Source: Silvanigrellaceae bacterium
GTDB taxonomy: Bacteria > Bdellovibrionota_B > Oligoflexia > Silvanigrellales > Silvanigrellaceae
Length of the DNA stretch: 10,537 bases
NCBI GenBank assembly: GCA_049423385.1
Contig: JBMSQQ010000107.1
Span: 1 to 10,537, forward strand
Direction of reading: 5' to 3'
Part shown: positions 214-10,465 of the stretch, one piece after another
How the letters are laid out: the number at the start of each line of letters is the position of its first letter
Position numbering within the stretch: the stretch's first letter is position 1
Made by a program: the position numbers and the translations under genes
Notes under the pieces: generated by a model
Told to the model about the DNA's origin: nothing
The model's database searches: none
Seen by the model: only the letters and a program-made list of their open reading frames with translations

Positions 214-375
214 CAAGGACTTCGGGCAAAACAACTTGTCTGATGTTCATAATTTTGTCGATTTTTAGAAGAAAAACACCAACAGCAGTGCGCTCCGCAT
301 TCCATCATCATGTAAAATAAGGCGACACCAATCAAACACTGCTTATGGATTTTGACAAAACCCGGGAGAACGAAC

Positions 376-2238
376 GTGAATCCTCCGATGCTTCGATTGT
401 ATCCGCTGTTGATGGCGATCGCGAGTCTTTCAACACTGACAGCATGCTTGAAGCCAAAAACAACCAACGATTCACAAATATCCGGCAACGCTACCGGAAG
501 ACCCGTTGCCATCGTTCAATGTTCCATTCCGCAAGGAAATGGTGGCAATTGGGCGGCAACTCTTGGCTGGATTTCAGAGCAGATGATGGTCAGGGCAGAG
601 CAGGCAGATCAAATCGCAAAGAGCGGAAAATCGGTTGGAGTCTTTCTTGGTTGCATGCTGGGGGGAAGCTCGGGATCGGTCGTCACCAACGTCGTGATGC
701 GATTGCTGAACAACAACAACCTGGTCGCTGGTGCACGTCCGGACAAGTTGTTTTCGGTAGATGAAACCCGCACGATGGCCCGTGCAGTTCGCTACGTGGC
801 AATGGCTGCAGATTTGAATCTTCGTGAGCTTGCTGTCTTCTTTGCCCAGGTGGCTGGAAACAACGTCGTGACTCTCACCAACAAATCAACAATTGTGGAC
901 AGAATAAAAACCTTGTTTGGACAAACTGAGCCCAAATGGTGGAATGGTCAACAGGTTGATGGAAACTTGATGCTCATCGACTTTGCGACACTGATGCATC
1001 TCGCTCAACATCTGACAGCTGAGATGATCAATGAGCCGGTCGAAAAATTTCTCGAAGGTGAAATACTGAAGCTGGCAAAATCAAAAAGCATCTTGAAGGT
1101 GACGGATTTTGCTCTTTTCAACGATTTGAAAAAGATGTCTGCCTCAAATCCGGAAGCAAACAGCCTCGACAGGATTCTCGAAAAACAGTCGAACCTGATT
1201 GGCAAAACTGCAGACGACTTCGTCGCAAAGCACTTTGCACTTGGGCAGTACAAAGCTCGCTATGTGACAAATGTGTTTCGCGGTGGAAAGCAGGATTATC
1301 CGCTTACAGTCACGCTCAATCAGCCCCTGGCAGATGGCTTCTGCACCATCACAATGGCCGCACTCGGGTTGAGTCCCAACGAACTGACACTGGAGCGCGC
1401 ACCCGACTACAAGACCCTGCGACCCGTTGTTTTTTGCTCAGGCACCATGGTGAGGACGTTGCTGAAGTCCAGCCTGTACCGAAGACATCTTCGTGAAGCA
1501 AACCCACACGCCAGCCGCTATGTTCTCGCCACTGTGCGTGCATCCCGTGGCTCCATCAGCCCCAGCATTCGTGAGCCCGGAATGATGAGCGAATTGATTG
1601 GCAATGCCGATGAGGGGGTGCTGGAAGTCGAGGAGTTGTATGCCCCGGACATGGACAAAAAGATGAACGGTGAATTGACGTTCCAACCAATGAGCATTGT
1701 CGATCTGACCAAAAGGGGCAACGGTGTGAAACCAAAACTGGGTATCGCCGGTGGATTTCCGGATCGTCGCATCAGCGCATGGATGATGTCATACTTTTTC
1801 ATCGACAAGATGGATGAATTGAAACGCAATGGATACGACATCATTGGCCGCATTGGATTGTTTGGAAAGCCGGACAACCGCGCTGCAGACAAATTCGATA
1901 CTTCATCGATCAGGAATATTTTCTCCGCGAATCCCCAGGCGGGCGAGGCAAACATCAAGGACTGGTATTCCTTTCAGGATGCCTATTGCAACGTCTTCGA
2001 GAGCTACTTCGCAGCAAATGGAGGCAGGGTGACGACCGTGGCATTCAATTGGGATCTCACAAAACTTCCTGCTGCGCAGAGTGGAGCAAGCCGGCTGATT
2101 CTCGTCAAGGGAGCCAACGCTGCGAGAAGCCAGTTGGGACTTTACGAGTCGAAGGTGTTTTCGGGCTTTGTGTTTGATCCAAACGCGGATTCCGACCATG
2201 TTCCACAATTGAACCATGGATATCCTTGCAAGCCATAA
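376..2238 (+). CDS. Lipoprotein with divergent patatin-like (phospholipase) motifs, about 620 aa
   Basis: Long ORF (track 352..2238). GTG at 376 lies 7 nt after GGAG (365-368); ATG 388 is an alternative start. A hydrophobic signal ends in lipobox LTA|C. Motifs in patatin order: GNGG (535-546), GxSxG = GGSSG (661-675), PVVFCSG (1423-1443), SIREPG (1564-1581), AGGFPD (1747-1764). The CDS is secure; the family call is moderate. Confidence 0.75.
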   Translation: MNPPMLRLYPLLMAIASLSTLTACLKPKTTNDSQISGNATGRPVAIVQCSIPQGNGGNWAATLGWISEQMMVRAEQADQIAKSGKSVGVFLGCMLGGSSGSVVTNVVMRLLNNNNLVAGARPDKLFSVDETRTMARAVRYVAMAADLNLRELAVFFAQVAGNNVVTLTNKSTIVDRIKTLFGQTEPKWWNGQQVDGNLMLIDFATLMHLAQHLTAEMINEPVEKFLEGEILKLAKSKSILKVTDFALFNDLKKMSASNPEANSLDRILEKQSNLIGKTADDFVAKHFALGQYKARYVTNVFRGGKQDYPLTVTLNQPLADGFCTITMAALGLSPNELTLERAPDYKTLRPVVFCSGTMVRTLLKSSLYRRHLREANPHASRYVLATVRASRGSISPSIREPGMMSELIGNADEGVLEVEELYAPDMDKKMNGELTFQPMSIVDLTKRGNGVKPKLGIAGGFPDRRISAWMMSYFFIDKMDELKRNGYDIIGRIGLFGKPDNRAADKFDTSSIRNIFSANPQAGEANIKDWYSFQDAYCNVFESYFAANGGRVTTVAFNWDLTKLPAAQSGASRLILVKGANAARSQLGLYESKVFSGFVFDPNADSDHVPQLNHGYPCKP

Positions 2239-2292
2239 GACCAGGGATAAAATGGTTTGCGAGTCGAATGGATTCCAATTTGCAAGCACGGG

Positions 2293-3666
2293 ATGATTGT
2301 GGATATTCAACTGAGACCATTCATTGTCTTTGCGTATTTTTCGGCTGCCCTCACAGGCTGCATATCGTCGAAGTCGTCGACAGTCGAATCGGGCAGTCGC
2401 GATTCAAAGGTCAACATTTCTCCTGAACGCTACCTGGAACAGTTTGAAGCCACTGAATTCGCCAAGTGTATCGACGAAGACGGAAAGGCCACCGGAAGCA
2501 TTGTCTCGATTTGGCGGATCAAGAATCTCACGGGCGATAACATCACACCATTTATTCAAGGATTTGCTGGAAAATTCAGGACCCTCAAAGGCACTCTCCT
2601 GGAGTTTCAGAGTTTGGTGACCCAGGAAGAAAAGCGATTTGCCCTGCCACTGTTGATGAAGCCGGAGCTCTTCCCTCGCGGCTCGTACAGTGCCTACAAA
2701 ATGCGCTTTCTTGAAGATGACATTCGACACGGAATTTCCATTCTCAACAAAGATGGAAAGAATTCCGCCCGCAATGATTTTACGACTGCCACGCTTTACA
2801 TACCGAGATTTGCGCTGGGCGGAGAATTTGCCACCCGCTACTACCTCAGGATCGATGACGATCAATCACACGAGATGAGTTGCCAGGCGGTCACTGAAGC
2901 CACAAGAGCGAGGCTCTCAACAGTCGCTGCAAAAGATGGACTTCATGGTTTCACAGGGGTGAGAGGGAAAAAGGTCGATATTTTTCTCAACCTGCACAAG
3001 CGAGACAAAGAGCAGCTCAAGTTCACGGTGGGCACGGGCGCAGGTGACACCTCGGCGACAAATTCTCCTTCCCTGCAACTGGTCAAGGCCAGCGACAAAG
3101 ACCTGCGGCCCACGGGAAGACCTAAAATTTACGATAAAATTTATGAGCACACGCGCATCTTTGAATGCAAGAAGGAAGGCGCGGTGGACGCAATTTGGCG
3201 CGTGGCCGACGACAATGGAAAAAAACTTTCGATGGAGGCTCGCTACATCACTGGATTTGCTGGCGAGCTGCATGACAAGATGACCGGCAACAAATTCAGC
3301 TTCAATGCAGTCTCTGTTGACCCTGCTCCAGCTTTTTACTCGGGTACGATGCCGCCGAATGCGCATTTTTTCTTTCCATCCATCGAATTTGATGATGACG
3401 ATTTCAAGCAAAGAATCGCGACACACTCTGCGCTTCCAAACCTCCCTGCAACCTTCAAGTCGGGCGGCGGCACGGTCTTCATCCCGCGGGATGGTTCAGG
3501 CCGTGCAGTTTCTGTTTCACTGTCCATGGGCAAATCATTGCGTGGAGATCCTTTCCAGGCCACTGCCCAGTGCCTGCCGGTGATCGATAAGGTTTCGTCC
3601 TGGATTGAGCATTGCCTTGGACAAGAGAACAGAAAAACAGCGGGTGTTGCCTGTAAACCAAAATGA
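2293..3666 (+). CDS. Hypothetical lipoprotein with two tandem homologous ~150-aa domains, about 457 aa
   Basis: Long ORF (track 2257..3666). ATG 2293 or GTG 2299 precedes signal FIVFAYFSAALTG|C (lipobox) and a Ser-rich linker. An internal duplication is visible. The stop overlaps the next start (ATGA 3663-3666). Confidence 0.8.
   Translation: MIVDIQLRPFIVFAYFSAALTGCISSKSSTVESGSRDSKVNISPERYLEQFEATEFAKCIDEDGKATGSIVSIWRIKNLTGDNITPFIQGFAGKFRTLKGTLLEFQSLVTQEEKRFALPLLMKPELFPRGSYSAYKMRFLEDDIRHGISILNKDGKNSARNDFTTATLYIPRFALGGEFATRYYLRIDDDQSHEMSCQAVTEATRARLSTVAAKDGLHGFTGVRGKKVDIFLNLHKRDKEQLKFTVGTGAGDTSATNSPSLQLVKASDKDLRPTGRPKIYDKIYEHTRIFECKKEGAVDAIWRVADDNGKKLSMEARYITGFAGELHDKMTGNKFSFNAVSVDPAPAFYSGTMPPNAHFFFPSIEFDDDDFKQRIATHSALPNLPATFKSGGGTVFIPRDGSGRAVSVSLSMGKSLRGDPFQATAQCLPVIDKVSSWIEHCLGQENRKTAGVACKPK
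2443..3582 (+). repeat. Protein-level tandem domain duplication (copy 1 ~2443-2892, copy 2 ~3142-3582)
   Basis: Ordered shared motifs: FEATEFAKC/YEHTRIFEC, IWRI/IWRV, FIQGFAG/YITGFAG, FLEDD/FDDDD, TLYIPR/TVFIPR, CQAV/CLPV. Confidence 0.8.
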
Positions 3667-4610
3667 AATTGAGGACGTTGGGAATGAAATTGCACTGTTT
3701 GAATATCAAACTGGGAATCGTCCTTGCAGCTGGATTTGTATCCACACCGGCGATGGCATGGGTCAAGTTGAGTGAGTGGAAAAAGCCCAAAGTCTTTGGA
3801 CTTTCACCCAGCGCGGATACAGCATCCATCAACAGCACAATGCAAAATGCTGGCTCAGGAGAAAATTCAATCTCGATGAACAAAACCAGCTCCTCGGTGC
3901 TGGCCCTCTACCCCATGCTCGACAACCTTGTTGCAGGGTTCAATTTTGGTGGAAGTGTTGGAGAGATTAAAAGCATTCCAACCCCAGCAGGCAACCGTGG
4001 CATGAAGACGAGCGGAAGCTGGCTGGAATTGGCTGCACTCTATGCATTCAATGACAACATCTCTGTCTACTTTTCCCCAGGCATGAGCTCAAAGAGATCA
4101 TCCGCGGAGGGCAAGGAGACGCGAGAGAATTTTGCAAGTCTGACCACCTACGGAGTTTATGCCATTGATGACAATGTTGGCCTGGGTCTCGGCTTGAGTG
4201 CGCGAAGGAATACGCGGAGCCAGACGGTAATTCCGCTCGTGGGTGGCGCATGGCAGGCATCGCCTGATGTCAGGATTGACGGTTGGCTGCCAGCCAACGT
4301 TCATGCCCGCTGGAAACTGGGCGAAGGGCAGGCCGTTTTTGCAAGACTCGAACTCGCAGGAGAATCGGCCTTGAGTGAAGGCATAATCACCGACAGCAAG
4401 ACCGAAGTTCAACTGCTTGGTGGTCAATTCCTGATCGGTTATTCGATTGGTACCTTGATTGGATTTGGAACAGGGGCGGTGCGAATCGACCCTTCGATTG
4501 GCTTTTACAAGGGACAGCTGTCCCAAACAAATGTTTCATCCGGATCAAAAAGCGAGAAGTCGACAGGTTTGAATCCGCTGGCCGACGTCAGGATTGCTGT
4601 CGCATTTTGA
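3663..4610 (+). CDS. Outer-membrane beta-barrel protein (possibly DUF6268-like), 315 aa
   Basis: Sec signal ending PAMA|W. Many alternating amphipathic segments (WLELAALYAF, ISVYFSPG, VGLGLGLSAR, AVFARLELAG). C-terminus ADVRIAVAF ends in Phe, typical of BAM substrates. ATGA coupling to the upstream gene. The DUF6268 resemblance (IPLVGGAW...WLP) is from memory only. Confidence 0.75.
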   Translation: MKLRTLGMKLHCLNIKLGIVLAAGFVSTPAMAWVKLSEWKKPKVFGLSPSADTASINSTMQNAGSGENSISMNKTSSSVLALYPMLDNLVAGFNFGGSVGEIKSIPTPAGNRGMKTSGSWLELAALYAFNDNISVYFSPGMSSKRSSAEGKETRENFASLTTYGVYAIDDNVGLGLGLSARRNTRSQTVIPLVGGAWQASPDVRIDGWLPANVHARWKLGEGQAVFARLELAGESALSEGIITDSKTEVQLLGGQFLIGYSIGTLIGFGTGAVRIDPSIGFYKGQLSQTNVSSGSKSEKSTGLNPLADVRIAVAF

Positions 4611-4639
4611 AAAAATTGGTCGGACATTTCGCTCAGTGC

Positions 4640-5764
4640 TCAAAACTCAAGACAGCCCTGCACAACAAGAGTTTGTTGCTGATCGGCCAAATCGAAATAG
4701 GTCTTTTCCCAGTAATCAACGTCTTCAAAAAATGAAAAGGTTTGCCGAAAGAATGGATCGTTCCAGCGTCCGGCAATCCAGCCGATATAATGGATCATCT
4801 TCAGTGTTCGAAGCGGTTCCACAAATATTTCCCAATCGGCTGGAAGCGCCCGGAAATCGCGATAACCCTCGGTGAGCATTCCAAGCGCATAAGCAGAAGG
4901 TGTGACATCTTCCAGATGATCCGGAACCACACAGCCACAGGTCGATGCCAGTGGCCACAGGTCCTGCATGGCGAGTCCATACTGACAGTCATCAAAATCA
5001 ACAAACCAGAATTGTCCGCCTTCGGTCATTTGCACGAGATTCAACCGGTGCAGGTCGCCGTGAACGGGAATGAAAGCGTCTGCTTCCGGCAACCATTCGA
5101 GGCCTCTTCCGATGTTTTCAATCACCTGAAAAATACCCTGCTGAAATTGTCGCGGAACCTTGTTCCACTCCATCAGGTTTTTAAGCGGCGTGTGGACGTA
5201 CATGTCGAGGCTGAAGCGAGGTCGAACAAATTTCTCGGAATCCACATGCCGCTCAAAGAGATTGTGCATGCGCGCAATGGTGCGGCCAATCCCGATGAGG
5301 TCCTTCTCTTCAAGTTCCAATGGAACCCGTCCATAGATTTTTTTCCAGATGGCAAAAGAGAAATCCCCGGCACGACCCAAGGTGGGTGTGGTTGGAAAGC
5401 CCGACGGCAATTCACCCTTGAGCCTTTGCCGCAATGTGCCTGCCTCGGGATGAACAAACGAACTTTCAACAATCGGAATCAAGGCAGGAGTCTCAATATT
5501 CTCCTCGGCAAGCAACCTGAGGAGCGCGTGTTCGCTGACGAGCATTGCAGGCGTCCAACGCTGTGGCCTGTAGAATTTGATGATGATTTGACCGACGCCA
5601 CGCGGTTGTGACGAGTCCTCGACCTCAACGGCATAGACCCTGTTTTCCATGCTGTTGAGCTGTTGAAAGCGTCCAGTGGAACGAAGACCACTGGATTCGG
5701 CTGCCGCCAAAATCAAATCGGCGTCAAGCTTGGAAAAGTGGTCTGGCGAGTCGGAAGGTTTCAC
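4640..5764 (-). CDS. srkA: Ser/Thr protein kinase, SrkA/RdoA (YihE) family, APH-like fold, about 374 aa
   Basis: Family motifs LNSMENRVY, IKFYRPQRW, HGDLHxxN (catalytic), VDFDD (metal binding), QDLW, EPLRTLKMIHYIGWIAGRWNDPFF. Start placed at GTG 5764, which forms a GTGA overlap with the upstream stop (5761-5763); ATG 5797 is the alternative. Confidence 0.9.
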   Translation of the reverse strand: MKPSDSPDHFSKLDADLILAAAESSGLRSTGRFQQLNSMENRVYAVEVEDSSQPRGVGQIIIKFYRPQRWTPAMLVSEHALLRLLAEENIETPALIPIVESSFVHPEAGTLRQRLKGELPSGFPTTPTLGRAGDFSFAIWKKIYGRVPLELEEKDLIGIGRTIARMHNLFERHVDSEKFVRPRFSLDMYVHTPLKNLMEWNKVPRQFQQGIFQVIENIGRGLEWLPEADAFIPVHGDLHRLNLVQMTEGGQFWFVDFDDCQYGLAMQDLWPLASTCGCVVPDHLEDVTPSAYALGMLTEGYRDFRALPADWEIFVEPLRTLKMIHYIGWIAGRWNDPFFRQTFSFFEDVDYWEKTYFDLADQQQTLVVQGCLEF

Positions 5765-6996
5765 GGAGCGGTGCAGTTGTAGGGAGGTGGTGCACATTCG
5801 GCCGGCAGATAACTTTCAGGATTCGGCGTTCCTGATGCGAGCCCGGCACAGTACATGTTTTTGCAGGTTGTTTGCTTTTGTTCAGGATTGTCACCAATTT
5901 TATTGAAATAATCCGTTGCCTTCGTCTTTGCGTCGCTCAGGGCCTGTTGCGTTTTGGCAGCAGATGCACCACCCGTTCCCGAGCCCGCCGCAGTTTGTCC
6001 GACATTCACGAACTTGCCCAATCCGTCGAGCGCAGCATCGAGAGTGGAGTCGATGGACGAAAGGGAAGCTTTGGTCTCGGCTGGCAGATTCAAGCCAACA
6101 ATCACTGCGGAGATCACCCGGGCCTGGGCAAGAGTGTAGTTTACGATGCCTGTAGGCGACGTCACACTCGACACCAAATTGTTGAGACCCGTCAGCGCCG
6201 CGTTCAACCTTGTCAGATTGCTTGCAGCTTGAGTCGCATCAGTTGCCGATCCCAAGGAACTGATCTCGGTTTGATATGACTGTGCCTGCGTCTGGGCTTT
6301 GGGAGTCTTGCCATCGGCTTCTGTGGGTACAAAAATCGGGAACAAGGTCGCAACCTGGATGAGCGCAGTCATCATGCCAGCGAGCAGAACATCGGAATTT
6401 GAAGTCGAGATTCCGTCTTTGCAGGCAGCAACATTCAAAGCTTCCTTGATGGCGGCTGTCTGGGCCTTGAGCTTGTTGATCGTTTCCACCGGAAACAATG
6501 GACAAATGGTTTCAAAAGCCTTTTGAAGCGCAGCAAATTCGTCAAAGCTGGATCGCAGGCTGTTGATGTTGGTCAACAGGTTCTGACTCTCCTTTGCCTT
6601 GATCGCATCGGATTTTTCCTTGGAGAGTCCGGCTCCGCTGGTCAGGGCTGTGATGTTGCTCCCCGATGTGCTTCCCGAAGTTGACTTGGACTTGATGACA
6701 TCGAACACCGAGATGTTGGATTTTCCGAGATAGGAGTACGCAAGTCGAACACGACCATTGATGTTGCTCGGGTCCTTTTCAACAAGCTTTTCGAGCAGCT
6801 CGACAGCCTTTGAGTAATCCCCTGCATCATATGCGGCCTGTGCCTCGATCGTCAGCCGAGATGGAGTTTCCTTGCGATCGGGGCTCGACAAAAATCCGCA
6901 GGCCGTGATGAACAACAGCGGACCGGCAAATGCCACACACTTGATTTTTGATTTCAAGGAAAGTGATTTTTTGCAGGAATCCAATTTCGAAATCAT
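5761..6996 (-). CDS. Hypothetical lipoprotein with N-terminal TPR-like helices, helical Ala/Ser/Thr-rich body and Cys-rich C-terminus, 411 aa
   Basis: GGAGG 8 nt before ATG. Lys-rich N-region plus hydrophobic stretch and lipobox ITA|C. TPR-like AQAAYDAGDYSKAVELLEKLVEKDPSNINGRVRLAYSYL. Tail TCKNMYC...EC...NCTAP. Confidence 0.8.
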   Translation of the reverse strand: MISKLDSCKKSLSLKSKIKCVAFAGPLLFITACGFLSSPDRKETPSRLTIEAQAAYDAGDYSKAVELLEKLVEKDPSNINGRVRLAYSYLGKSNISVFDVIKSKSTSGSTSGSNITALTSGAGLSKEKSDAIKAKESQNLLTNINSLRSSFDEFAALQKAFETICPLFPVETINKLKAQTAAIKEALNVAACKDGISTSNSDVLLAGMMTALIQVATLFPIFVPTEADGKTPKAQTQAQSYQTEISSLGSATDATQAASNLTRLNAALTGLNNLVSSVTSPTGIVNYTLAQARVISAVIVGLNLPAETKASLSSIDSTLDAALDGLGKFVNVGQTAAGSGTGGASAAKTQQALSDAKTKATDYFNKIGDNPEQKQTTCKNMYCAGLASGTPNPESYLPAECAPPPYNCTAP

Positions 6997-7152: not shown

Positions 7153-9219
7153 TCAGACCAGACCCATAATCTTGTCCTGAAGGTTTTTTGGCACAGGCTC
7201 GTAATGGGAGAACTGCATGGTGCTGCTCGCACGCCCCTGCGACAAACTCCGAATGTCGGTTTCATAGCCAAAGAGTTCGGCCAAGGGGATTTCAGCCTGA
7301 ACCACCTGAAGATGTCCACGGGCATCGAGACCGAGAACGCGTCCACGACGACCGTTGACGTCGGAGACGATCGTGCCGCTCGATTCGGGCGGAACCACGA
7401 CTTCGACCTTCATGAACGGCTCCATCATCACAGGCGCAGCTTTTTCGAGTGCAACACGCGCCGCATTTGCCACGGCGACCTTGTAGCAGACCTCATCCAC
7501 GAGCTGTGGATCATATGAGAAGTCCGTCACCTCGACCTTCAGGTTCACGAGCGGATAGCCGCACAACGGACCACTGCTGACCGCACCTTCAAGACTTTCC
7601 TTCAGAGCGCCAATGACGTTGGCTGGAATATTTGGCTTCTTTACAATTTCAAGCGCAGGTGCGCCTCGTTCATCCGATGCCACAACCTTGAGAGCGACCC
7701 AGGCAGAAAAGTTTTTATTGTTCAGGGGGCGAGAGAATTCCTCGCGCGCTGCGGCGGATTTGACAATCGACTCGCGGTAGCTGACCTGCGGCTTGCCGAT
7801 ATTGGCTTGCACCTTGAACTCCCGCAACAAGCGGTCTGCAATAATCTGCAGATGAAGTTCACCCATACCGGAGATCAACACCTGTCCGGTATCCTCGGAT
7901 GTGCTCACCCGCAGCGAAGGATCTTCCATTGCAAGACGATTGAGGCTCTGCATGAGTTTGTCGAGATCGGCTGTTGATTTGGGCTCCACTGCAAGCGAGA
8001 TCACCGGCTCCGGGAACTTCATCGCCTCATATGCAATCGGGGCTTCAATCGCCGCAAGAGTGTCACCGGTGACGGCAAACTTGAGTCCGACCAAAGCGAC
8101 AATTTCACCTGCAGACACCTCTTCAACTTCAGAGCGGTCGTTGGCATGCATCATCAAAATTTTTGTCACGCGCTCCTTCTTTTGTTTGAGCACATTCTGC
8201 ACCGCATCACCAACTTTAAGTTTACCACTGTAAATGCGAGCGAATGACAAGGTGCCAACAAAAGGGTCGCTCATGATCTTGAAAACAATGGCAGAGAACG
8301 GCGCATCTGCACTGTGCGGACGCATGCCCTCTTTCACAACTCCTTCAACTTCGACACCCTTGACGGCAGGAACGTCGAGTGGAGAGGGCAGATAATCCAC
8401 AATGGCATTCAGCAGCGGCTGAATGCCTTTGTTCTTGAATGCGGTACCCATGAAAACAGGGACGAGGTTGATTCCGACCACCGCCTTGCGCAATGCTTTC
8501 TTGATCATTGCGGGTGTAACGTCGGCATCCGACAACACGGCCTCGGCGAGCGCATCGTCGAAGTCGGCAAGGTTTTCGATCAGCTCTTGCCTGTACAAGT
8601 GTGCATCGTCAGAAAGATCGGCTGGAATTGAGGTTTTTTCAAATGGCGAATCCTTGTCGTCGCCTTTCCAGATCCAGGCCACCATTTCCACAAGGTCAAC
8701 AACGCCAACAAACGAACTTTCGCTTCCGATGGGAAGTTGGGCCAAGGCCACCTTCGCGTTGAGTTTGCTGCGCATGGATTCAATGCACATTTCAAAATCG
8801 GCGCCGACTTTGTCCATCTTGTTGAGGAAAGCAATGCGCGGAACATGGTAGCGCTCGGCTTGACGCCAAACTGTTTCGGACTGTGGTTCAACACCATTTG
8901 CAGCATCGAAAACAGCAACCGCACCGTCGAGCACACGCAGTGAGCGCTCAACTTCAATAGTGAAGTCAACGTGTCCGGGAGTATCGATGAGGTTGATACG
9001 GTTGTCGTTCCAGAACACGGTCGTGGCAGCGGATGTGATGGTGATTCCACGCTCCTGCTCCTGCACCATCCAGTCCATCGTTGCAGTGCCTTCATGCACC
9101 TCACCCAGCTTGTGGCTCTTTCCCGTGTAATAAAGCAGTCGCTCAGAAGTCGTGGTTTTTCCGGCGTCGATGTGCGCCATGATTCCAATGTTGCGAAACA
9201 GACTCAGGTCGTGACTCAT
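7153..9219 (-). CDS. fusA: Elongation factor G, divergent domain IV (EF-G2/spdEFG2-like), 688 aa
   Basis: [16 protein letters not shown] (G1), RGITI (G2), DTPGHVDF (G3), NKMD (G4), GTAFKNKG (G5), GMGELHL, YRE, and C-terminal RSLSQGRA. Located after rpsL-rpsG. ATG 9219 is preferred over TTG 9225 (AAGAG 7 nt upstream). Confidence 0.97.
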
Positions 9220-9344
9220 GAACAAACTCTTTCACGTGCTGGTGGGCAGAAAAGTTGCCCGCAATGTTTCCGGTATCTAGCAAAAGCGGCTTGAAAAATC
9301 ATCCGCACCAACGCCCGCCACCCCTTCTTTTTTGATAGAGGCAC

Positions 9345-9376
9345 AAAAAAACAGCGCCCGGGTACGGGGCGCTGCT
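9345..9376 (-). terminator. Rho-independent terminator between rpsG and fusA
   Basis: Minus strand reads AG-CAGCGCCC-CGTACCC-GGGCGCTG-TTTTTTT: a perfect 8-bp GC-rich stem, 7-nt loop and U7 tract, about 25 nt after the rpsG stop. Confidence 0.85.
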
Positions 9377-9401: not shown

Positions 9402-10051
<650 letters not shown>

Positions 10052-10465
10052 TTACTTCTTGCCCTTCTTTGCTGGTTCGGCGACGGCTGCGCCTCCCTTG
10101 GGCTTTTTGGCTCCGTACTTGGAGCGCGACTGACGGCGCTTCGCAACACCGGCGGTGTCCAATGAACCGCGGACGATGTGGTAACGCACACCGGGAAGGT
10201 CTTTCACACGACCGCCACGCACGAGAACAACGCTGTGCTCCTGGAGGTTGTGGCCTTCGCCTGGGATGTAGGAAATGACTTCAAAACCTGAAGTCAAACG
10301 AACCTTGGCAACCTTACGGATAGCCGAGTTCGGTTTCTTGGGAGTGGTTGTGTACACGCGGGTGCACACTCCACGACGTTGCGGGCAGTTCGCCATTGCT
10401 GGTGACTTACTGCGGTAGATCTTGGGGTGACGCCCCTTCTCTACGAGCTGGTTAATGGTTGGCAT
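10052..10465 (-). CDS. rpsL: 30S ribosomal protein S12 with C-terminal extension, 137 aa
   Basis: [69 protein letters not shown] upstream. Confidence 0.99.

Follow-up and report, generated by a model that had tools for sequence, protein, structure and literature searches.

What is the function of an elongation factor G (EF-G) that occupies the usual place in the str cluster and has a near-canonical body, yet has lost the domain IV loops of the translocase? This question is raised by a 10,537-nucleotide stretch of DNA from a Silvanigrellaceae bacterium (GenBank assembly GCA_049423385.1, contig JBMSQQ010000107.1), which is called the window here. The comparisons described below indicate that the window EF-G is probably a ribosome-recycling factor of the spdEFG2 type and that a paralog of the spdEFG1/mtEFG1 type, encoded on contig C150 of the same genome, would be the translocase. 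The gene and the altered elements of its domain IV are the following.

7153..9219, minus strand: EF-G paralog of the str type, 688 residues, ATG at 9219-9217 and stop at 7153-7155, identified by TIGR00484 and by its five Pfam domains.
7705..7731, minus strand: domain IV loop I, RPLNNKNFS, residues 497-505, replacing (K/R)Q(S/T)GGxGQ(Y/F), from the alignment.
7480..7524, minus strand: domain IV loop II, residues 566-580, replacing DGSYHxVDSSEMAFK, from the alignment.
7633..7638, minus strand: K528-P529 of domain IV, replacing the conserved GG of the GG(A/V)IP motif, from the alignment.

Both loops align without gaps to those of Thermus EF-G (rqtggrgqyg and dgsyhevdssemafk), and the change is therefore purely one of substitution. 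The loop I substitutions Q498P, G500N, G501N, G503N and Q504F fall in columns that are 100% conserved in 71 intact-loop EF-Gs, and loop II carries G567F, H570D, V572Q, D573L, S574V, S575D, A578C and F579Y. Columns 528 and 529 are Gly in 99% and 97% of the intact EF-Gs. When the motifs are aligned in E. coli numbering, Q507, T/S508, G509, G510 and Y514 of loop I are P, L, N, N and S in the window EF-G, and H583, D586, S587 and S588 of loop II are D, L, V and D; E589 and the length of loop II are retained. Canonical EFG I is recognized by intact loops I and II (Q507, GG, H583 and D586), and all of these residues are replaced. Membership of spdEFG2 is recognized, according to PMC8203779, by the loss of at least one of the two loop 1 glycines, and here both have become Asn. 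The rest of the protein is canonical. The G motifs are intact (G1 AHIDAGKT, G2 RGITI, G3 DTPGH, G4 NKMD and G5 GTAFKNKG), domains II, III and V are of the usual kind, and switch I has no insertion, reading HEG where the C150 paralog has KGKSGVG. An initial annotation, made from the letters alone, had described much of this. Its loop I, RPLNNKNFS at about 7705-7731, is exact, and its loop II at about 7480-7524 does lack the conserved His, a position occupied by Asp570. Its description of G1-G5 and of domains III and V as near canonical agrees with the motifs and the Pfam scores, and the absence of a switch I insertion is borne out by the alignment. The replacement of the GG at residues 528-529 (7638-7633) by KP is an addition to that description.

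Are these changes concentrated at the tip or part of a general drift? Conservation was scored over 250 columns, each with a conservation of 90% or more among the 71 intact-loop EF-Gs, which comprise 65 canonical and 6 spdEFG1-type sequences; the str-type copies formed a third aligned set. The canonical sequences, all longer than 650 residues and from many phyla, came from a homologue search with the window protein, which returned mostly canonical EF-Gs of many phyla and in which the window's own genus did not appear. Two records that are not EF-G (L004 and L009), one that is garbled past domain III (L041), two partial ones (L028 and L080), a duplicate of the window (L133) and all shorter pieces were left out of the canonical set. 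The limits of domain IV, residues 481-600, are approximate; they correspond to those of Thermus EF-G and match the boundaries given by Pfam. The window EF-G departs from the consensus at 45 of the 250 conserved columns. The changed columns number 23 of the 35 within residues 481-600 as against 22 of the 215 elsewhere (Fisher p 5e-12), and the non-conservative changes 18 of 35 as against 7 of 215. The Pfam EFG_IV model gives the same picture, with 45.8 bits for the window EF-G, 57.3 for a member of its family, 55.8 for a Planctomycete EFG2, about 91 for Bdellovibrio and for an Oligoflexales metagenome-assembled genome (MAG), 128.8 for the C150 EF-G and 170.8 for a canonical EF-G. The Pfam scores of the G domain, domain III and domain V are alike across all of these proteins. 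The erosion of the tip is specific to domain IV.

The window EF-G is under purifying selection and is not decaying. Compared with its nearest orthologue, the gene as a whole has a ratio of nonsynonymous to synonymous substitution rates (dN/dS) of 0.017; the ratio is 0.012 over residues 1-480 and rises to 0.047 in domain IV. These values come from the nearest pair only, most other pairs being saturated in dS. Orthologues with 87-98% identity were present in all 12 genus genomes searched, and across the family the rewritten loops show conserved patterns of their own, FSRxxxxKxF(S/T)A and D(F/Y)S(Y/F)D.

The eroded copy is found well beyond the genus. The GGxGQ motif of loop I is missing from all 35 other str-type copies that were aligned, 12 each from the genus and the family, 5 from the class and 6 from records named as Bdellovibrionota (Bdellovibrio, Bacteriovoracaceae, Oligoflexales and Bdellovibrionales); two of the 35 are partial, with a loop II that is incompletely readable. 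Ten further class-level str-type copies are eroded without exception. Bdellovibrio shows the least erosion and the window's family the most thorough. The window's lineage adjoins a clade containing a MAG titled Oligoflexales, and its genome is a Bdellovibrionota one, probably of the class to which Oligoflexales belongs. Two class-level str-type copies differ in detail. One (G032, L169) keeps the loop II His with an eroded loop I, and the other (G025, L168) has a deletion of two residues in loop I and an insertion of two residues in loop II. The position of the gene also varies. In the sister genus g5 (G016, G022, G023 and G024) a distance of 240-456 kb within one contig separates the eroded EF-G from rpsG, and in G015 of genus g4 the two genes are on separate contigs. 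Neither rpsL nor rpsG is found within 1.5 kb upstream of the eroded EF-G at 7 of the 11 assessable family loci outside the genus. From these loci it appears that str linkage has been lost in part of the family and that the tie to the str cluster is loosening.

Where, then, is the translocase? The initial annotation had predicted that a spdEFG1-type gene should exist elsewhere in the genome, and a search of the genome (G000; 3.47 Mb, 183 contigs, 90.6% complete) located one.

Contig C150 of G000, positions 2672-4807: second full-length EF-G, 711 residues, 42% identical to the window protein.

The loops of the C150 EF-G are intact (KKQSGGSGQF and DGLHHPVDSSEMAFK), and its switch I carries the insertion KGKSGVG. 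A switch I insertion of three residues, with the consensus KDG, is given as the defining feature of spdEFG1 by Margus et al. 2011 (PMC3150367). The best solved relative of the C150 EF-G is mitochondrial EF-G1, with 818 bits versus 675 for E. coli EF-G; the insertion and the affinity to mtEFG1 place it with spdEFG1. On the NCBIfam equivalog TIGR00484 it scores 968 bits, above the window EF-G, and since both proteins pass, this model is unable to separate the subfamilies. C150-type paralogs kept loop I and the loop II His in all 18 genomes that were read. In 145 of 153 pairings of genomes the C150-type paralog was better conserved than the str-type copy, though the pairs are not independent, the genomes being kin. 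In the same 18 genomes the C terminus of this paralog is a basic tail of some 10 residues (YKAKRAAENK or similar) that the str-type copy lacks; counted past an anchor motif in the 11 genomes where both copies have it, the tail is 25 residues in the C150 type versus 15-16 in the str type. The C-terminal extension of EF-G1mt is reported to be needed for translocation and to clash with ribosome recycling factor (RRF) (Koripella et al. 2021, PMC8203779). The basic tail of the C150 paralog resembles that extension, and by analogy this protein may be incapable of recycling. The C150 gene (L002 1468-3603) follows an open reading frame (ORF) that by eye is D-Ala-D-Ala-ligase-like, and it follows no translation genes.

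The same pairing recurs in related genomes. Among 41 related genomes, G000 being one of them, two EF-G matches at E<=1e-100 were the rule (36 genomes); a single match was obtained in three, three matches in one and no match in one. Each of the 23 genomes in which both copies were read pairs an eroded EF-G with an intact one. The initial annotation had held that a complete genome with this protein as its only EF-G would speak against a recycling role. A complete Bdellovibrio genome has exactly two EF-Gs, one eroded and one intact, plus a 29%-identical protein with a 537-residue open frame. The tabulation of Palmer et al. 2013, which lists two Bdellovibrio bacteriovorus EF-Gs of 701 and 702 residues with 41% identity, is consistent with the pairs seen here. 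Family f4 (G027 and G029; L162-L165) is different: there the partner of the eroded str-type EF-G has intact loops but no switch I insertion, and the family may have exchanged its translocase partner. No third full-length EF-G was found in the 90.6% complete G000. The pairing expected of a spdEFG2, namely with a spdEFG1-type EF-G and with no intact-loop EFG I in the same genome, is thus what was found in G000 at this completeness. Weaker matches on contigs C32, C82, C88, C24 and C18 cover only parts of EF-G and were taken for other translational GTPases. An EF-G-like piece of 49 residues at the start of contig C53 (G000:C53:3-149, L010) corresponds to canonical EF-G residues ~150-198 with 53-59% identity. 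It was rejected as a remnant of an EFG I, its 133 bases having no match in the 12 genus genomes though the adjoining DNA does match, and bases 134-187 overlapping the end of contig C167. This piece is probably a chimeric contig end and not a third EF-G.

How would the work be divided between the two proteins? The C150 paralog is, on the sequence evidence, most likely the translocase. According to PMC7749637, the tip of domain IV contacts the codon-anticodon duplex through Q507, T/S508, G509, G510 and Y514 of loop I and H583 and D586 of loop II, and changes at Q507, H583, D586, S587 and S588 slow translocation or cause frameshifting. With the duplex-contacting residues replaced, translocation by a protein with the tip of the window EF-G would be expected to be very inefficient and error-prone. 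Recycling makes other demands. Mutations at the loop 1 tip are reported to harm elongation with a negligible effect on disassembly, the loop 1 of EF-G2mt to clash with h44 at bridge B2a, and Borrelia EF-G2 and EF-G2mt to function solely in recycling (PMC8203779). In the proposed mechanism the window EF-G would work with RRF to split post-termination ribosomes, with its domain IV pushing against RRF domain II and bridge B2a (h44/H69). The RRF gene, frr, is present and broken by the assembly, with matches to profile positions 1-114 and 99-175 at the ends of contigs C89 and C13 (L134 and L135). Because recycling would use the body of domain IV on RRF domain II and could nearly dispense with the loop 1 tip, a specialization for recycling is the most likely outcome. 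We infer that translocation has been lost and recycling retained.

A division of labour between a translocase and a recycling factor is the published model for spdEFG1/spdEFG2 and for mtEFG1/mtEFG2 (PMC3150367, PMC8203779). Does the window EF-G belong to spdEFG2? A tree was made from 50 sequences that were hand-picked before any tree was inspected (20 Bdellovibrionota str-type, 6 spdEFG1-type, 2 Planctomycete EFG2 and 22 canonical), under LG+C20+F+G4 with posterior mean site frequencies (PMSF). The branch that joins the Bdellovibrionota str-type copies and the Planctomycete EFG2 and sets them apart from EFG I and spdEFG1 has an ultrafast bootstrap (UFBoot) of 99 and an SH-aLRT of 97. The label spdEFG2 for the Planctomycete pair is the analyst's own, given from the phylum and from the pairing with a spdEFG1-type copy. 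Both Planctomycete genomes have, beside a spdEFG1-type copy, a second EF-G with eroded loops (HRLVNGQQLFA and LDAETTE-ESTPMAFS), and it is this second EF-G that lies directly 3' of rpsL-rpsG; no spdEFG1-type copy is so placed. Outside the loops, the str-type copies and the Planctomycete EFG2 have in common the substitutions K416T, T660S, I77L and M649L in otherwise conserved columns. Against the solved structures the Planctomycete EFG2 scores 421 bits with EF-G2mt and 387 with EF-G1mt. A homologue search with the Planctomycete EFG2 gave no Spirochaete or mitochondrial EFG2 among the 120 matches listed, all of which are at least 75% identical and carry the organism names Mariniblastus or Planctomycetota. 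Taken together, the sequences suggest that the Bdellovibrionota str-type EF-Gs tilt towards spdEFG2. The phylogeny that the initial annotation had proposed as a check was to include spdEFG1/2 and mtEFG1/2; the grouping obtained here is with the Planctomycete EFG2. The annotation's statement that spdEFG2 and mtEFG2 show this same erosion holds for the Planctomycete copies, where the erosion is heavy, and goes beyond what is described for Borrelia EF-G2 and EF-G2mt, where the loop 1 change is mild (PMC8203779).

Several points weigh against a spdEFG2-type recycling factor. Forcing the str-type copies beside EFG I is 9.5 log-likelihood units worse with an approximately unbiased (AU) test p of 0.041, which is a marginal rejection of a group that was named after the tree had been inspected. 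The loop columns were retained in the tree, and its rows include no Borrelia or mitochondrial EFG2. The window EF-G is overall nearer to canonical EF-G than to EF-G2mt, with 777 bits against Thermus EF-G versus 493 against EF-G2mt and 488 against EF-G1mt, and it passes TIGR00484. The incomplete genome leaves room for a third EF-G. Lastly, deletions in loop II and S588P are reported to impair both recycling and translocation in E. coli, with other single loop II changes sparing recycling (PMC4666400), and for this reason the rewritten loop II of the window EF-G is not obviously neutral for recycling. Having kept its length and being conserved in the family, this loop may have a role of its own at B2a.

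Could the recycling function have arisen without orthology to spdEFG2? In this alternative the arrival of a spdEFG1-type gene in Bdellovibrionota would have been followed by an independent loss of the loops from an ordinary EFG I of the str operon. The pairwise scores of the window EF-G give it some support, with no clear preference for EF-G2mt over EF-G1mt, and so does the statement of Margus et al. 2011 (PMC3150367, Fig. 2 legend) that delta-proteobacterial EFGs are not unambiguously assignable to EFG I or spdEFG2. The loop sequences moreover differ between the Bdellovibrionota lineages and the Planctomycetes, and the intact partner of family f4, which has no switch I insertion, implies that partners are exchangeable. 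However, the branch supported at 99/97, the AU result against a placement with EFG I, the str linkage common to the Bdellovibrionota and Planctomycete copies and the four substitutions that they have in common outside the loops all weigh against a convergent origin, which seems unlikely, if still worth keeping in mind.

The boldest reading goes further than the spdEFG2 model and is a rather speculative one. The tip would have been rebuilt, beyond mere relaxation, into the two loop motifs given above and the KP that replaces GG, all held by purifying selection, while the body stayed ~55% identical to Thermus EF-G. This new tip could touch bridge B2a (h44/H69) or a co-evolved surface of RRF in a manner peculiar to the lineage, giving a mechanistically distinct mode of splitting or a further function, and the gene would be the direct descendant of the ancestral fusA, translocation having been handed to the duplicate.

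A job on the ribosome that is neither translocation nor RRF-dependent splitting, such as that of a stress or quality-control GTPase or of a ribosome protection or rescue factor, is improbable. The family-conserved tip motifs under purifying selection do suggest a defined new contact, loop II is rewritten although it is important for recycling in E. coli, and the gene has departed from the str cluster in the sister genus. Against such a job, the scores on the NCBIfam models for Tet protection, EF-G2 and EFG-like proteins are far under the cut-offs, and if the spdEFG1-type partner cannot use RRF, as is reported for EF-G1mt, the window EF-G is the only other recycling candidate found.

It is more doubtful still that the window EF-G remains a translocase, as the main or a dual-function one with a divergent tip, and that the C150 paralog is an accessory. 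The position after rpsL-rpsG, the overall similarity, which is highest to canonical EF-G, the passing of TIGR00484 and the intact GTPase motifs would all fit. But every tRNA- and mRNA-contacting residue of loop I has been replaced together with H583 and D586 of loop II, and in E. coli a single change at any of several such positions is reported to be enough to impair translocation or reading-frame maintenance severely (PMC7749637, PMC4666400). The C150 paralog, on the other hand, shows no change at the contact residues in any of the 18 genomes read, is better conserved than the str-type copy in most pairs of these related genomes and has the higher TIGR00484 score (968 vs 888 bits). A decaying gene or an assembly artefact can practically be dismissed, for nothing except the unusual loops speaks for it, and against it stand an open frame across 688 residues, orthologues in all 12 genus genomes and the dN/dS of 0.017, which rules out a pseudogene.

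How does a spdEFG2-type window EF-G compare with systems that are already known? The spdEFG2 proteins of Spirochaetes, Planctomycetes and 'delta-proteobacteria', for example Borrelia burgdorferi EF-G2, likewise have a spdEFG1-type partner with a switch I insertion and have lost loop 1 glycines, and the tree groups the window EF-G with the str-linked EFG2 of Planctomycetes. In Borrelia EF-G2, however, only one loop 1 Gly has changed, to Ala, as described in PMC8203779, whereas in the window EF-G loop I is replaced entirely, loop II for the most part and the GG as well, in a body that is unusually near canonical, at ~55% identity; Borrelia EF-G2 is compared here by its published description only. 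EF-G2mt (ribosome-releasing factor 2, GFM2; PDB 7L20) plays the role proposed for the window EF-G, that of a recycling-only paralog beside EF-G1mt. Like the window EF-G, it has an altered loop 1, which does not fit the decoding centre, and lacks the C-terminal extension of the translocase paralog; its loop 1 has one Gly and two neighbours changed (PMC8203779). The two are not close in sequence, the score of the window EF-G being no better with EF-G2mt than with EF-G1mt, and the window EF-G has no mitochondrion-specific additions. In Pseudomonas aeruginosa the str-operon copy, EF-G1A, appears to recycle and the other copy translocates (PMC3832671), as is proposed here. The Pseudomonas copies are described as recent EFG I duplicates with 84% identity (PMC3832671), whereas the window and C150 EF-Gs are 42% identical and belong to different subfamilies.

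The canonical EFG I proteins, fusA of E. coli and Thermus, have the same str position, domain architecture, G motifs and passing TIGR00484 score as the window EF-G. Unlike them, the window EF-G has neither loops I and II nor the GG, is not the sole EF-G and has no tuf 3' of it. EFG II (Thermus EF-G2) and Tet(M)/Tet(O) are also EF-G-like GTPases with a modified domain IV. EFG II is described as lacking RGITI and having a poorly conserved G domain (PMC3150367), whereas in the window EF-G RGITI is present and the G domain is fully canonical. An EFG II identity was rejected on the presence of RGITI, on the GTP_EFTU score of 221 bits and on 374 bits for NF009377 (EF-G2) against a cut-off of 890. 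An identity as a Tet ribosomal protection protein was rejected on 357 bits for tet_protect against a cut-off of 775 and on the intact RGITI.

The neighbourhood of the gene is that of a canonical fusA on its upstream side, the location in the str cluster 3' of rpsL-rpsG being one of the features by which EFG I is known.

9402..9875, minus strand: rpsG (ribosomal protein S7), upstream neighbour of the EF-G gene, TIGR01029, 220 bits.
10052..10465, minus strand: rpsL (ribosomal protein S12), first gene of the str cluster, TIGR00981, 225 bits.
9345..9374, minus strand: terminator-like hairpin followed by T7 in the spacer between rpsG and fusA, from reading of the sequence and a stem scan.

The EF-G ORF is listed as 7153..9225 on the minus strand, beginning at TTG 9225. 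The ATG at 9219-9217 is the likely start codon, as it stands 7 nt downstream of GTGAAAGAG and agrees with the start of the orthologues. The protein from this gene scores 888.9 bits on TIGR00484 against a cut-off of 659.4. The spacer between rpsG and fusA is unusually long at 182 nt in the window and measures roughly 80-180 nt in genus relatives. The hairpin in it, 28 nt past the rpsG stop, has a stem of 8 pairs (7 of them G-C) and a loop of 7 nt; the stem scan listed it under the plus strand, and the T run is on the minus strand. Its role as a terminator is putative. The length of the spacer together with this hairpin suggests that fusA may be partly uncoupled from the transcription of rpsL-rpsG. 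In the window tuf is not 3' of fusA; in the genome it is broken in two, with one part at the end of contig C24 and the other where contig C141 begins. What lies 3' of fusA (4640-6996, minus strand) is a putative lipoprotein of 411 residues with one TPR-like stretch and an APH/SrkA-like kinase of 385 residues (NF008738, 235 bits), whose ORF overlaps that of the lipoprotein by 37 nt. On the plus strand, 352-4610 of the window holds three consecutive ORFs of 628, 469 and 315 residues, with no Pfam match at E<=0.001.

The pattern of an eroded and an intact EF-G is itself known. The analysis adds to it a further lineage, its extent across the phylum, the thoroughness of the erosion and the str position held in common with the Planctomycetes. 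No description of the state of the loops in Bdellovibrionota was found in the literature, which was covered in part. The split between translocase and recycling factor would thereby be extended across Bdellovibrionota, and the sequence evidence helps with the ambiguity between EFG I and spdEFG2 that Margus et al. 2011 (PMC3150367) describe for delta-proteobacteria. Since the window EF-G passes the equivalog model, automatic annotation will label it fusA/EF-G, and its position suggests the translocase, although the real one is probably the unlinked paralog. For the window EF-G, this has a bearing on annotation, on phylogenies that use fusA as a marker gene and on antibiotics targeting EF-G in predatory bacteria. 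As a natural EF-G whose tip has been replaced completely while the body stays near canonical, it would also be a handy protein for separating the requirements of recycling from those of translocation, including the disputed role of loop II.

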